A stretch of 64,000 nucleotides of DNA from Escherichia phage 215Ecol030PP: sequence record PP328843.1. The stretch is one strand, 5' to 3'. Position numbers and translations under genes: made by a program. Positions 33,650 to 38,886 of the stretch are shown piece after piece. Under the pieces are notes generated by a model. The model was not told where the DNA came from. It ran no database searches and was given only the letters and a program-made list of their open reading frames with translations. Position 1 is the first letter of the stretch. Every line of letters begins with the position of its first letter.

Positions 33650-34066
33650 TTAAATGTAAATATTTTTGCCGTAATACTTATACCAGTGTGGCTTCATTAA
33701 AATTTTTTCATCGAGTCGTTGTTGACTCAACTTAATAGCTGATTTACATGGATTATAATCATTTTTCCATTCTACTGGAATATCGCTGATGTCAGGAACT
33801 TCAGTATCTTTTATACTGAACCCGCGTTTTAAGCATTCCGTTATAATGTCCGATTGACGCTTTCGCAAAAATTCTAACTTATCGTAAAAGAAAGTAACAT
33901 GACCAGAACCTAAAATAAATTTAGAAGATATTTTAAAATCTTTAACGCGCTTACCGTTTGCCACATGCTTACGAACTATACCAAAAACACGCGGCAATTC
34001 ACGGTATTCTGCGATTAAATGTTGATCAGCAAGTTCAGATACTAAAGTCAAATTAATACGAGTCAT
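33650..34066 (-). CDS. denV: endonuclease V (pyrimidine-dimer DNA glycosylase) DenV
   Basis: 138-aa [32 protein letters not shown]...WYKYYGK; matches T4 DenV with a few substitutions. Confidence 0.9.
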
Positions 34067-34091
34067 TTTATCCCTCCAAGTAACTGTGAAT

Positions 34092-34121
34092 ATACTATCA
34101 CAGTTTTAGGAGAAAGTAAAC
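34092..34121 (-). promoter_or_regulatory. T4-type early promoter upstream of denV
   Basis: Minus strand GTTTAC, 18-nt spacer, TGATAGTAT. Confidence 0.5.
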
Positions 34122-34125
34122 AACT

Positions 34126-34656
<531 letters not shown>

Positions 34657-35112
34657 TTAAAAGAGGTTGTTCATTATTCGGTAAAGTGAAGGACCCATCA
34701 CATATTGCCACTGAGTACGAGGAATAAGAGCAAAAGCGTCCATCTCTGGAATCATAACGCCATCTTTATTTTCAAAATAAGACTCGCAATGGCAATTTCT
34801 AAACATCTCATGCTCTACTGGAATCGTATAATAAAATAACTGTAAGTCTTTATTACTAGAATATTTAAATACACCTAGGTCTTCTAGAAGGTCTGGATTA
34901 TAATCGATAAAACCAGTCTCTTCTGAGCATTCTCTTTTTGCAGCTTCCAGTGCATTCAAATCAGAACTTTCTACACGGCCCTTTGGAATATCCCAGCGAT
35001 GTGCCATCATTCCAGGCTTACGAGAACCAGTAACCCGACCCATAAATAAATCTTTATCTTCTGTCATAAAGATAATACCAGCTGATAGTGTTTTCATTTT
35101 AATTTCCTGCAT
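34657..35112 (-). CDS. nudE: Nudix hydrolase NudE
   Basis: Nudix box GRVESSDLNALEAAKRECSEETG. Confidence 0.85.
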   Translation of the reverse strand: MQEIKMKTLSAGIIFMTEDKDLFMGRVTGSRKPGMMAHRWDIPKGRVESSDLNALEAAKRECSEETGFIDYNPDLLEDLGVFKYSSNKDLQLFYYTIPVEHEMFRNCHCESYFENKDGVMIPEMDAFALIPRTQWQYVMGPSLYRIMNNLF

Positions 35113-35582
35113 TCAGTGATAAAGTTATTTAAATTTTGAGTATATTTCTTTTCATCAAAAATCTTTTGTTGTCTGCGTAAACGCCATGGCATTTCAATGA
35201 ACATACGCCATATTCCTGATAATACTGCTGCTGTAAAAATATTAACAAGTATAGTTAAAAGAACCCAATCTCCTATTCTGTCCATTGGATTTTTTATAAA
35301 AAAGTAAAATACGAACGATGATATAGGAAGACTAATGATATACCACAGAAGAACCTTCTTATCTGTGAACCAATCAGCATTCGTTAACTTAGCGCGACCG
35401 TTTTGAATACATACGAACTTATCATCTGTTACAGTAAATGGCTTAACTGGTTGATATCCCATTCTAAACTCCCTAATCAACAAATTTTTCATATCTTCGG
35501 AACAGCCAGTCCAGTCAACTCTATCAACTGAAATGCCATCATCCCCATCATCTAAATCATACCAGCGAGTTTTTAAAATCAT
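35094..35582 (-). CDS. membrane protein, paralogue family member 1 (162 aa)
   Basis: Two TM helices, basic segment WRLRRQQK, C-terminal ...FITECRKLK. Confidence 0.5.
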   Translation of the reverse strand: MILKTRWYDLDDGDDGISVDRVDWTGCSEDMKNLLIREFRMGYQPVKPFTVTDDKFVCIQNGRAKLTNADWFTDKKVLLWYIISLPISSFVFYFFIKNPMDRIGDWVLLTILVNIFTAAVLSGIWRMFIEMPWRLRRQQKIFDEKKYTQNLNNFITECRKLK

Positions 35583-35941
35583 CTGATTTTCCTACAATCA
35601 CTCACAAACTCTTTCATTGATTCATTTTCAATATAAGACATATAGCTATTATATTCTTTTAATTGTATTTTGTAATCCTTTTTTCTTTGCCAATTTATTT
35701 TAAAATTATCATAATGAAAATATAGTATAGTGCCAAAGAATGAAAATAATGAAATTGCTATAGTAAAACGAAGTTCACTCCAAACCTCTGTTATAATTGC
35801 TGAACCATCGATGTTTAAAATAAAACAGTCAATCATTAATCCAATAAGACTACCCGCAAGAGCTGCAAATACTGACACGGCAAGAATTAACAGTGCCTCA
35901 AGAAACGAATATTTGACTTTATTTAGTTTTGGCTTTTGCAT
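35579..35941 (-). CDS. membrane protein, paralogue family member 2 (120 aa)
   Basis: Two TM helices, WQRKKDYK, C-terminal ...FVSDCRKIR. Confidence 0.5.
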   Translation of the reverse strand: MQKPKLNKVKYSFLEALLILAVSVFAALAGSLIGLMIDCFILNIDGSAIITEVWSELRFTIAISLFSFFGTILYFHYDNFKINWQRKKDYKIQLKEYNSYMSYIENESMKEFVSDCRKIR

Positions 35942-36336
35942 CGTGATTCCTTAACAAATTTCATAATTTCATTAAATTCATACTCAGCAAGTTTAAGCTG
36001 GTGTTCCTTTTTAATCTTTTTACACTGAGCTTTCCAATCACGTACGCGTTTACGATAATGCCTTCCTTGATACCAGTATCCTACCCAATTTACGGGTACT
36101 AATAAAAGTGGAACTATTAATGGAAGAATTAGCATTAACACAAGTATTTCGCCAGAATCAATATCAGTCATAACATCTAAAACACCTCCAATAATCAATA
36201 GAATTACAAATGATATGAGTATAACAGGACCTATTAACACATCAGTAGAAATTATCTGACGCTTTGGTTCATACTTCACAGGTTTACTTGGAAGGTATAG
36301 TGATGGTTTTGACATATTCTCTACATTCCTTAACAA
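35923..36336 (-). CDS. membrane protein, paralogue family member 3 (137 aa)
   Basis: Two TM helices, YRKRVRDWK, C-terminal ...FVKESRCKSQN. Confidence 0.5.
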   Translation of the reverse strand: MLRNVENMSKPSLYLPSKPVKYEPKRQIISTDVLIGPVILISFVILLIIGGVLDVMTDIDSGEILVLMLILPLIVPLLLVPVNWVGYWYQGRHYRKRVRDWKAQCKKIKKEHQLKLAEYEFNEIMKFVKESRCKSQN

Positions 36337-36898
36337 ATTTTTCTAGTAATAAATCACTTTCAAAATTAGGATTTTCCACTAATTTATCAAAAAGATCATC
36401 AACAATATTCAAGATATTTCTTTTACTAAGAATACGTTTATTTTCATGCTTCGTTTCAGAATCAACTATAAGAGTAAAGAAATATTTCTTGCCCTGAAAT
36501 TTTACAGTAGTATCAATATAAAATAAATTTGACTTTTGTAAATTACGTTTAAACCATGCGTCACTTAAACTATAAACACCGAGATAATCAAAATCGTCGT
36601 TTAAATAACAAACCGTCCATTCAGGAGAAATGAAATCAGTAAATTCAACATCAAAATCACACGTCAATGAATGAATTGATTCAATACTGTTAATAAGTAT
36701 TCCAGGACGTATTAAAGACTTTTTACCTCTGGAAAATCTTCCAGAAAGACTTTCATCAGTTTCATATGAAGACCCCCAATAGTAATTACGTCCTTCTGCC
36801 ATGCGTTTAAGAGCATTTAGTAATTGGTCTGGAACATCAACCTGTCTTTGGAACTCTTCAAACATTGAATTGAAATCACTTTGCATTTTCATTTTCAT
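36284..36898 (-). CDS. hypothetical protein (204 aa)
   Basis: ORF. Confidence 0.5.
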   Translation of the reverse strand: MKMKMQSDFNSMFEEFQRQVDVPDQLLNALKRMAEGRNYYWGSSYETDESLSGRFSRGKKSLIRPGILINSIESIHSLTCDFDVEFTDFISPEWTVCYLNDDFDYLGVYSLSDAWFKRNLQKSNLFYIDTTVKFQGKKYFFTLIVDSETKHENKRILSKRNILNIVDDLFDKLVENPNFESDLLLEKFVKECREYVKTITIPSK

Positions 36899-36915: not shown

Positions 36916-36937
36916 ATAAGGGGCCGAAGCCCCTTAT
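36916..36937 (-). promoter_or_regulatory. C(UUCG)G hairpin
   Basis: ATAAGGGGCcgaaGCCCCTTAT palindrome. Confidence 0.55.
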
Positions 36938-36939
36938 CA

Positions 36940-37533
36940 TTATTTCAGAGAATTAATGTATTCCTGAACATCGGCAGAGGTAGTTTCAACCCCAGAAATA
37001 TTACCGTTAAAGGTTTCAACTCGAGCAAGGGTATCTTCAATATCAACCTTAGTCAGCGCTGCAATTTCAACTACATCATCAGCAGTACTAATTCCAAGGG
37101 CATTCGCTGCACGAGTTTCACGGATATATTCCAATTTAACTGCAAGTTCTTGGCGAGCATCATCTAACTCAACTACTTTCTTAGCGATTTCAATTCGCAT
37201 TTCAGCATAACCATCAGCTTTAGTAGTCAACTGCTCAGCTGTTCGACGATATAGTAAACCGAGTTTAGCATGCATTGTTACATCTTGACCTTCGGAAAGA
37301 AGCTTGCGAATTTCACGCTCTTTTGATTCAGCCTGTTTATTCTTTTCAACGATAAGTTCACGAATACGCTTTTCTTCATTAATAGATTTAACGGAAGCAG
37401 TTTTTAGATCTTTAATTTTATCAAGTAGTTTTGCTGCCGCAGCAGTATACTGTTCTTCAACAGATAGATTTTTAGCCATAGCAGAACCAAGTTTAGTGCG
37501 AATAAACTCAACAATTTTCTTCAGTGTGTTCAT
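36940..37533 (-). CDS. coiled-coil protein (197 aa)
   Basis: Long charged heptad-rich helices. Confidence 0.5.
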
Positions 37534-38295: not shown

Positions 38296-38322
38296 AAAAA
38301 GCCCCAACCTTTTGGTCGGGGC
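38296..38322 (-). terminator. intrinsic terminator (twin copy 1)
   Basis: Minus-strand GCCCCGACC-AAAA-GGUUGGGGC then UUUUU. Confidence 0.7.
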
Positions 38323-38330
38323 TAAGAATG

Positions 38331-38852: not shown

Positions 38853-38879
38853 AAAAAGCCCCAACCTTTCGGTCGGGGC
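38853..38879 (-). terminator. intrinsic terminator (twin copy 2)
   Basis: Minus-strand GCCCCGACC-GAAA-GGUUGGGGC then UUUUU; differs from copy 1 by one loop base. Confidence 0.7.
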
Positions 38880-38886
38880 TAAGCCT

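Follow-up and report, generated by a model that had tools for sequence, protein, structure and literature searches.

A C-terminal tail shared by the predicted membrane proteins e.2, e.3, and e.4 and the soluble protein e.5 of a T4-like Escherichia phage, and its overlap with putative ribosome-binding sites

In the present study, we analyzed 64,000 nucleotides (nt) of DNA from Escherichia phage 215Ecol030PP (sequence record PP328843.1). This whole stretch is called the window below, and all positions are counted from its first letter. The subject is a group of three consecutive genes for small, predicted membrane proteins, e.2, e.3, and e.4, that share a C-terminal tail with the product of the neighboring gene e.5. 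The window belongs to a T4-like myovirus (Tequatrovirus). The 2.3 kb around the three genes show 97.9% DNA identity to Escherichia phage vB_EcoM_G2540-3 and match 513 phage records, nearly all of which are from Tequatrovirus. The order of the genes on the minus strand, named after those of T4 (NC_000866), is denV, e (lysozyme), nudE, e.2, e.3, e.4, e.5, and e.6; in an older GenBank entry, L13089, e.2 to e.6 are called msp7, msp6, msp5, msp4, and msp3, respectively. The three genes are as follows (aa, amino acids).

35094..35582, minus strand: e.2 (T4 e.2/msp7), 162 aa; PHROG match and hydropathy.
35579..35941, minus strand: e.3 (T4 e.3/msp6), 120 aa; its stop overlaps the e.2 start (ATGA).
35923..36315, minus strand: e.4 (T4 e.4/msp5), 130 aa from ATG 36315; overlaps e.3 by 19 nt.

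Judged by their sequences, these open reading frames (ORFs) are the orthologues of T4 e.2, e.3, and e.4, which are catalogued and uncharacterized. They have full-length matches to PHROG families (e.2 to phrog_2203 with an E-value (E) of 1.7e-78, e.3 to phrog_2330 with E=5.1e-56, and e.4 to phrog_2604 with E=3.9e-70), their lists of homologues carry the precomputed Pfam families PF26896 (e.2) and PF26873 (e.4), and their protein identity to the Tequatrovirus homologues is 66-98%. The placement between e.5 and nudE-e, on the same strand and with overlaps, agrees with NC_000866, L13089, and six more Tequatrovirus records. In a scan of IMG/VR with the e.3 profile, only 11 loci were found. The T4 proteins (UniProt P32273, P32274, and P39222; 'conserved hypothetical, predicted membrane protein') agree with those of the window in gene order, overlaps, and tails. 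However, a frameshift cuts the T4 reference e.2 to 102 aa, whereas the window has an intact e.2 (162 aa). In addition, denV of the window is followed directly by e (34066-34126), without the ipII and ipIII found between these two genes in T4. In the T4 reference, in which the frameshifted e.2 is at 4653-4961 of L001 (NC_000866), a leftover ORF with the tail ...NNFITECRKLK persists downstream of the frameshift; most relatives have an intact e.2 of 162 aa. The open frame of e.4 reaches a TTG at 36336 (35923-36336), which marks only the end of the open frame, and the start is likely ATG 36315 because all of the homologues begin with MSKPSL. In a 97-aa sequence from a 703-nt ENA contig (P0193), the first ~33 residues of e.4 are joined to a helix-turn-helix sequence (Pfam PF08279), which probably reflects a chimeric assembly or a fragment that was rearranged. 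Several e.3 and e.4 records are named 'sulfurtransferase', one e.3 record 'DNA primase', and several e.6 records 'host specificity protein'; no backing for these database names was found in Pfam, NCBIfam, or PHROG.

A first-pass annotation of this DNA had assigned to each of the three gene products two transmembrane helices (TM1 and TM2), a basic juxtamembrane stretch, and a conserved C-terminal tail, and all of these features were recovered. A Kyte-Doolittle scan found two helices in every product. In e.2, a predicted cytoplasmic N-terminal domain of ~76 aa precedes the two helices, which span aa 78-96 (TM1, nt 35295-35351) and aa 106-129 (TM2, nt 35196-35267) with a short acidic loop between them; RLRRQQK is the basic stretch, and NNFITECRKLK is the tail. 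The helices of e.3, at aa 17-35 (TM1, nt 35837-35893) and aa 57-75 (TM2, nt 35717-35773), are likewise separated by an acidic loop; ahead of them is a basic N-terminus (MQKPKLNKVK), and behind them come the basic WQRKKDYK and the tail KEFVSDCRKIR. The product of e.4 has the N-terminus MSKPSLYLPSKP, with TM1 at aa 31-49 (nt 36169-36225) and TM2 at aa 57-75 (nt 36091-36147), again around an acidic loop, before the basic RHYRKRVRDWK; its tail is MKFVKESRCKSQN. Both e.3 and e.4 have basic N-termini, the stretch behind each TM2 is basic, and the loops of ~10 residues are acidic; by the positive-inside rule, this charge pattern places both ends in the cytoplasm and the loop in the periplasm. Thus, e.2, e.3, and e.4 are predicted to be small inner-membrane proteins with two helices and with both termini in the cytoplasm.

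The tails quoted by the first-pass annotation, FITECRKLK (e.2), FVSDCRKIR (e.3), and FVKESRCK (e.4), share the motif F-[IV]-x-[ED]-[CS]-R, which is the best conserved part of each protein. The soluble product of e.5, which that annotation did not list, bears the motif too: EKFVKECREYVK (KFVKECREY) is located 11 residues ahead of the stop, in a tail that reads ...EKFVKECREYVKTITIPSK. Among 526 six-frame segments of at least 40 aa from the 64 kb, F[IV]x[ED][CS]R was matched five times, and four of the five matches are the C-termini of four consecutive genes. When hidden Markov models (HMMs) of the tails only were searched against 917 segments of the window, the best non-self matches were the neighbors (e.3 to e.2, E=0.024; e.3 to e.5, E=0.053; e.5 to e.2, E=0.032). 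Copies of the motif are also present in the region from 1 to 63 kb of T4, and none of these is C-terminal. With segments from six genera (1613 in six frames), F[IV]..C[RK] gave 20 matches, 18 of which lie no more than 16 residues from a C-terminus. A similarity due to chance or to composition only was excluded by these six-frame scans and the tail-only HMM searches.

The tail also ends the counterparts at equivalent positions in Mosigvirus, Gaprivervirus, Jiaodavirus, Winklervirus, and Kanagawavirus, and these counterparts include both membrane and soluble proteins. The tails recorded there are as follows.

e.2 tail, VR7 (Gaprivervirus): SFIEECRK
e.2 tail, PEi20 (Kanagawavirus): SFIKGCRNGRN
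e.3 tail, JS09 (Mosigvirus): NFIKECRK
e.3 tail, VR7 (Gaprivervirus): TFIKECKS
e.4 tail, JS09 (Mosigvirus): EFVKEIRCKSLNS
e.4 tail, Gaprivervirus: EFIKEVRNGTA
e.5 tail, JS09 (Mosigvirus): QFIMECREYVK...
CHI14 gp135 (soluble, 273 aa): ...EFVKMCRTK...
CHI14 gp134 (two helices): ...YFIKECR
CHI14 gp130 (e.2-like): ...DFIKGCRK
CHI14 gp129 (two helices): ...DFIRGIRS

The last four proteins are the tail carriers of Serratia phage CHI14 (Winklervirus). Klebsiella phage Merci (Jiaodavirus) has three carriers, gp21 (soluble), gp20 (two helices), and gp14. In the same phage, the adjacent short ORFs gp18 and gp17 (L030, 5870-6195) are jointly like CHI14 gp129, and seem to be frameshifted with a degenerate tail (...LSWIKEMK). 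The protein at the e.5 position of Gaprivervirus keeps RFIAECREYAK, and its body is unrelated to Tequatrovirus e.5 except for 15 residues of the tail.

The first-pass annotation regarded the three genes as tandem paralogues, and this claim stands only in part. They have a common architecture (two helices, a basic stretch, and the tail motif), and pairwise alignment, the test which the annotation had set, revealed a similarity exceeding hydrophobic composition, namely, the shared C-terminal motif. However, pairwise BLASTP between the three proteins was weak (E=0.012, 0.029, and 0.13), with similarity only in the tails. We compared family profiles that included the orthologues from Mosigvirus JS09, Gaprivervirus VR7 and UPEC07, and Kanagawavirus PEi20. 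By hhalign, e.2 and e.3 aligned over 19 columns of the tail (probability P=81%, E=1.3e-5) and e.3 and e.4 over 41 columns of the juxtamembrane stretch and tail (P=67%, E=5e-5), whereas no significant alignment was obtained for e.2 and e.4 (P=1%). The membrane helices could not be aligned in any profile pair of the three, a full-length e.2 HMM matched e.3 only at E=1.4, and PHROGs place the three proteins in three separate families; one paralogous family extending over most of the length is not supported by these comparisons. CHI14 gp134, a two-helix protein of Winklervirus, was tried as a bridge between e.3 and e.4, and failed in that the tails alone align. In addition, e.3 and e.4 have in common the N-terminus M-x-K-P-x-L and an exact 16-nt repeat upstream of their starts. 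It is plausible from these likenesses that e.3 and e.4 are tandem duplicates, and e.2, with an extra N-terminal domain of ~76 residues, would be related to them through the tail only. The same tail is found on soluble, unrelated proteins; thus, a shared tail is no proof of duplication of a whole gene.

The genes from e.5 to nudE all overlap, by 32 nt (e.5/e.4), 19 nt (e.4/e.3), 4 nt (e.3/e.2), and 4 nt (e.2/nudE, counted to the nudE start at ATG 35097), which fits with translational coupling. The motif codons are located at these junctions.

35106..35123, minus strand: e.2 motif codons, TTT ATC ACT GAA TGC AGG (F I T E C R); AGG AAA is the Shine-Dalgarno sequence, 5 nt before nudE ATG 35097.
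35591..35608, minus strand: e.3 motif codons, TTT GTG AGT GAT TGT AGG; AGGAAA is the Shine-Dalgarno sequence, 5 nt before the e.2 ATG.
35941..35958, minus strand: e.4 motif codons, TTT GTT AAG GAA TCA CGA; AAGGAA is the Shine-Dalgarno sequence, 5 nt before the e.3 ATG.
36320..36337, minus strand: e.5 motif codons, TTT GTT AAG GAA TGT AGA; AAGGAA is 10 nt before e.4 ATG 36315.

In nearly every junction, the Shine-Dalgarno sequence lies within the motif and the next ATG follows after 5-10 nt. It consists of AAG GAA (K-E) where the protein stops soon after C-R-K, and of AGG AAA (R-K) where two further residues follow, as in e.3 and e.2 of the window; the choice between the two codon pairs tracks the position of the ATG. 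The F codon lies 17-26 nt ahead of the next ATG, and the motif lies 0 to 15 codons ahead of the stop of its own gene. We conclude, as far as sequence can tell, that the purine-rich codon pairs of the peptide are exploited as ribosome-binding sites.

The junctions also carry repeats. The exact 16-nt repeat mentioned above, AAATTTGTTAAGGAAT, is present at 35946-35961 and 36325-36340, where it overlaps the motif codons of e.4 and e.5, and the e.3 motif region (35591..35608) forms a 24-nt imperfect direct repeat with 35100-35123. The locus L010 is identical to the e.3/e.2 junction of T4 exactly up to TGCAGGAAA and to the e.2/nudE junction of T4 exactly thereafter. By this comparison, e.2 was precisely deleted in L010, by a crossover within the C-R-K codons. 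At least 12 deposited phages, among them Yersinia phage PST and Escherichia phage PP01, gave an uninterrupted match to this e.3/nudE junction. In the IMG/VR loci L013 and L015-L017, the tail of e.5 is followed directly by the start of e.3, without e.4; phage UFV05 (P0051) has an in-frame fusion of e.4 (1-31) with e.2 (89-162), without e.3; and Mosigvirus has no e.2 at this position. The repeated junctions are, on this comparative evidence, substrates for unequal recombination that deletes or fuses members of the array. The losses of e.2, e.3, and e.4, together with the frameshift in T4 e.2, indicate that each member is individually dispensable in nature. In the reports on PeSL cassettes (PMC2839356 and PMC4122927), conserved promoter and stem-loop motifs at gene boundaries are described as mediators of modular shuffling in the variable regions of T4-type genomes. 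The junctions described here resemble these cassettes in that short boundary repeats in a variable region serve as recombination points at which genes are added or removed. However, in the present case, the repeat is located within coding sequence (the last codons and the Shine-Dalgarno sequence) and encodes a conserved peptide; it is not a promoter, and it is not a stem-loop either.

One possible explanation of these observations is that the tail has no function as a protein, and is a by-product of the translation initiation region of the overlapping downstream gene (AU-rich UUU AUU, AAGGAA or AGGAAA, and a spacer) and of a junction repeat that recombination has spread and homogenized during the shuffling of genes in this variable region. 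The position of the Shine-Dalgarno sequence, the narrow distance from the F codon to the ATG beside the varied distance to the stop, the 16-nt and 24-nt repeats, the crossovers of natural recombinants within the motif codons, and the occurrence of an identical tail type on unrelated soluble and membrane proteins would all fit with this explanation. The junction RNAs are unstructured (z-scores from -0.5 to +1.3), as open initiation regions should be; a conserved RNA structure at the junctions was excluded by the same scores. However, the amino acids are kept while the codons vary, with AGG, AGA, CGT, CGA, and CGC for the conserved Arg and TGT and TGC for the Cys. In 12 Tequatrovirus loci, the ratio of nonsynonymous to synonymous substitution rates (dN/dS) of the tail was 0.05 (e.2), 0.13 (e.3), and 0.18 (e.4) with an ordinary dS of 0.16-0.25; that is, synonymous changes occur at the normal rate and replacements are nearly nil, a sign of strong purifying selection on the peptide. 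The helix-loop-helix part of the same loci is relaxed (dN/dS 0.44-0.63), and these values gave no sign of positive selection on the loops. At the e.5 position of Gaprivervirus, FIAECREY is kept although the motif codons (GCT GAA TGT CGC) do not resemble a Shine-Dalgarno sequence, the best match to which is four codons later. Furthermore, the Shine-Dalgarno sequence shifts between codon pairs while the other motif residues are retained, and conservation reaches 30-50 residues upstream of the motif. The low dN/dS of the tail, the varied Arg and Cys codons, and the case of Gaprivervirus argue that the peptide itself is selected, and we consider the by-product explanation unlikely. From these sequence comparisons, both protein and nucleic-acid constraints act on the motif.

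Alternatively, the tail might act as a nascent peptide in the exit tunnel, slowing termination and thereby letting the ribosome re-initiate at the overlapping start (peptide-assisted coupling). This mechanism would account for the kept amino acids, for a motif that ends unrelated proteins, and for the next start that is always near. However, the motif is located 0 to 15 residues from the stop, and would therefore be at differing depths of the tunnel at termination. We regard this mechanism as very improbable.

In T4, RNA of e.2-e.5 is classed as early and all four proteins were detected (PMC9697503), in agreement with the first-pass annotation, which had placed the genes in an early region. 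In a CRISPRi-ART study, e.2-e.5 were scored as 'Not Fit'; that is, each knock-down was without a fitness effect on laboratory E. coli (PMC11879866). The gene names e.2-e.5 do not appear in the main text and the T4 section of the HIDEN-SEQ transposon study, and no functional study of e.2-e.5 was found in the literature searched. These proteins had no match in searches of Pfam, NCBIfam, or PADLOC, matched only PHROG groups of unknown function, and were not placed in any known functional family; sequence searches of solved structures had no match for e.5, the e.2 profile, or e.6.

The first-pass annotation had suggested a function in superinfection exclusion or in targeting the host membrane. That is, e.2, e.3, and e.4 may be diversified proteins of the exclusion or host-envelope type, which, like Imm, alter the inner membrane to block the DNA of later phages. 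They are small, early, dispensable inner-membrane proteins, they vary in sequence mostly in the helices and in the predicted periplasmic loop, and the array gains and loses members between isolates. T4 Imm (83 aa) is likewise a small, laboratory-dispensable inner-membrane protein of the same phage and, by inspection of its sequence, seems to have two hydrophobic stretches too. However, Imm is encoded at another locus and has neither the F-x-x-E-C-R tail nor sequence or profile similarity to the three proteins (hhalign P=5.0% for e.3, 0.2% for e.4, and 0.3% for e.2). For Sp (spackle), e.4 alone was compared (P=1.2%); a similarity to Imm or Sp was excluded by these low probabilities. No exclusion or defense family was matched in PHROGs or PADLOC, the loops have only ~10 residues, dN/dS is below 1, and the conserved part is cytoplasmic and common to a soluble protein, which this model leaves unexplained. 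Exclusion phenotypes of T4 are attributed to imm and sp, and we know of no exclusion phenotype for e.2-e.4. Such a function is not supported by these results and appears rather unlikely.

Class II holins, which are usually encoded beside the endolysin gene, are small as well; they have two helices, a charged C-terminal tail, and cytoplasmic N- and C-termini. The size, the predicted topology, and the basic C-terminal region of the three proteins resemble those of these holins, and the endolysin gene e (34126-34620) is ~500 nt downstream, as would be expected of holin- or antiholin-like regulators of lysis. However, the RNA of the three genes is early, not late, the knock-downs are without fitness effect, the tail is common to soluble proteins, and neither Pfam nor PHROGs gave a holin family at E up to 1. 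The holin of T4 is the product of gene t, and the antiholins rI and rIII are encoded elsewhere. A role in lysis is therefore hardly probable.

The neighboring genes and the intervening hairpin are as follows.

36284..36898, minus strand: e.5 (T4 e.5/msp4), 204 aa; phrog_2607; overlaps e.4 by 32 nt.
36916..36937: palindromic, GC-rich hairpin located between e.6 and e.5 (GGGGC-UUCG-GCCCC in the transcript).
36940..37533, minus strand: e.6 (msp3), 197 aa; a predicted long helical hairpin, considered as context and as a candidate partner.
34657..35112, minus strand: nudE (e.1), Nudix hydrolase (PF00293, E=4e-13); the last gene of the coupled run e.5-e.4-e.3-e.2-nudE.

In a hydropathy scan, the soluble e.5 is without a hydrophobic helix. 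An exhaustive HMMER search for e.5 found only six relatives among 1.84 billion representative proteins, none of which is a distant one with known function. The longest ORF of nudE begins at ATG 35112 (MQEIKMKTLS), and an alternative start is ATG 35097 (MKTLSAG); public records are split between the two. ATG 35097 is better placed: the AGGAAA within the e.2 tail lies 5 nt ahead of it, and it forms an ATGA overlap with the stop of e.2. A putative stem-loop between msp3 (e.6) and msp4 (e.5) of T4 is annotated in L13089. Upstream of the e.x genes, two strong, near-identical terminator-like hairpins (38857-38880 and 38300-38323, minus strand) are 557 nt apart; both consist of AGCCCCGACC, a loop of GAAA or AAAA, and GGTTGGGGCT, followed by a T run, and a regulatory cassette may be repeated here on the two sides of a gene.

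The gene e.6 is directly upstream of the tail-bearing genes in Tequatrovirus, Mosigvirus, Gaprivervirus, Jiaodavirus, and Winklervirus, and the order of e.6, a soluble tail-bearing protein, and two-helix tail-bearing proteins is kept in the five genera. The identity of e.6 is 75-88% in Mosigvirus and Gaprivervirus, where that of the tail-bearing neighbors is about 25-55%. For a model of e.6 predicted from the single sequence (predicted local distance difference test (pLDDT) score of 74), the top 11 PDB matches by Foldseek were Vipp1/PspA chains, the best with E=1.4e-4 and 213 of 214 columns aligned. By sequence, a relation of e.6 to PspA_IM30/PspA was not found: Pfam, a PDB sequence search, and hhalign against E. 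coli PspA were all negative. In the more distant phage RB43, the 205-aa ORF268w (L032, 4280-4897), which is located shortly after the e.6 homologue, contains EKFIHSCKK, a sequence similar to the tail motif, ~24 residues from its C-terminus.

The reading that we prefer, although we hold it tentatively and give it a little less than an even chance, is that the tail is a shared cytoplasmic docking or assembly peptide, which would bring membrane anchors and a soluble protein together on one common partner. Interchangeable membrane anchors and the soluble e.5 would bind, by the tail, one conserved cytoplasmic protein, and the best positional candidate for this partner would be e.6, the highly conserved, predicted coiled-coil protein encoded just upstream. 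Such binding would build an accessory module of the inner membrane early in infection and would leave the variable helices and loop free for adaptation to the host or to competitors. Several points weigh against this reading. The evidence for both the docking peptide and e.6 as its partner consists of conservation and gene order. Part of the conservation of the motif could come from its role in translation initiation. In e.4-type proteins, the Cys of the motif is replaced by S, I, or V, and a signature of an amphipathic helix in the tails was not significant against shuffled versions. The AlphaFold model of e.2 is poor (mean pLDDT 51, and 29-41 across most of the N-terminal domain) and is unfit for a fold search. 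Furthermore, e.6 is present in many phages, for example RB43, in which the proteins adjacent to e.6 lack the C-terminal tail, and an obligate complex of all of the members is unlikely because e.2, e.4, and e.3 are individually lost.

The docking reading may be extended, in a form that is speculative and quite improbable, to a portable tag by which changing anchors and soluble proteins would recruit e.6 as a PspA/Vipp1-like protein (ESCRT-III superfamily). The genes from e.6 to e.2 would then be a module for membrane maintenance or remodeling analogous to PspA-PspB-PspC, and the tag would double as a ribosome-binding site and a recombination joint. In the Psp system of the host, PspA, a coiled-coil protein of the ESCRT-III superfamily, acts with the small membrane partners PspB and PspC, which have one helix each. 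The likeness is that a protein of ~200 aa with a predicted helical hairpin, e.6, is encoded upstream of small inner-membrane proteins with cytoplasmic helical tails. However, there is no sequence similarity, and the comparison is a lead only.

Although these genes are already catalogued ORFs of T4, no earlier description of the tail as shared, dual-coded, and recombinogenic was found in the literature searched. One peptide that ends four neighboring early proteins, and recurs in five more genera, points to a common partner, and may offer a handle on the 'dark matter' of T4; by its modeled fold, e.6 may be PspA/Vipp1-like and is a possible partner. If the tail is a mere by-product of the initiation region, it would be a curiosity of overlapping coding. 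The ~20 bases that encode the motif have a triple use, as a protein motif, as the Shine-Dalgarno sequence of the next gene, and as a crossover site at which genes are cleanly removed or fused. They are a compact example of how the variable regions of T-even phages can shuffle genes with translational coupling unbroken.

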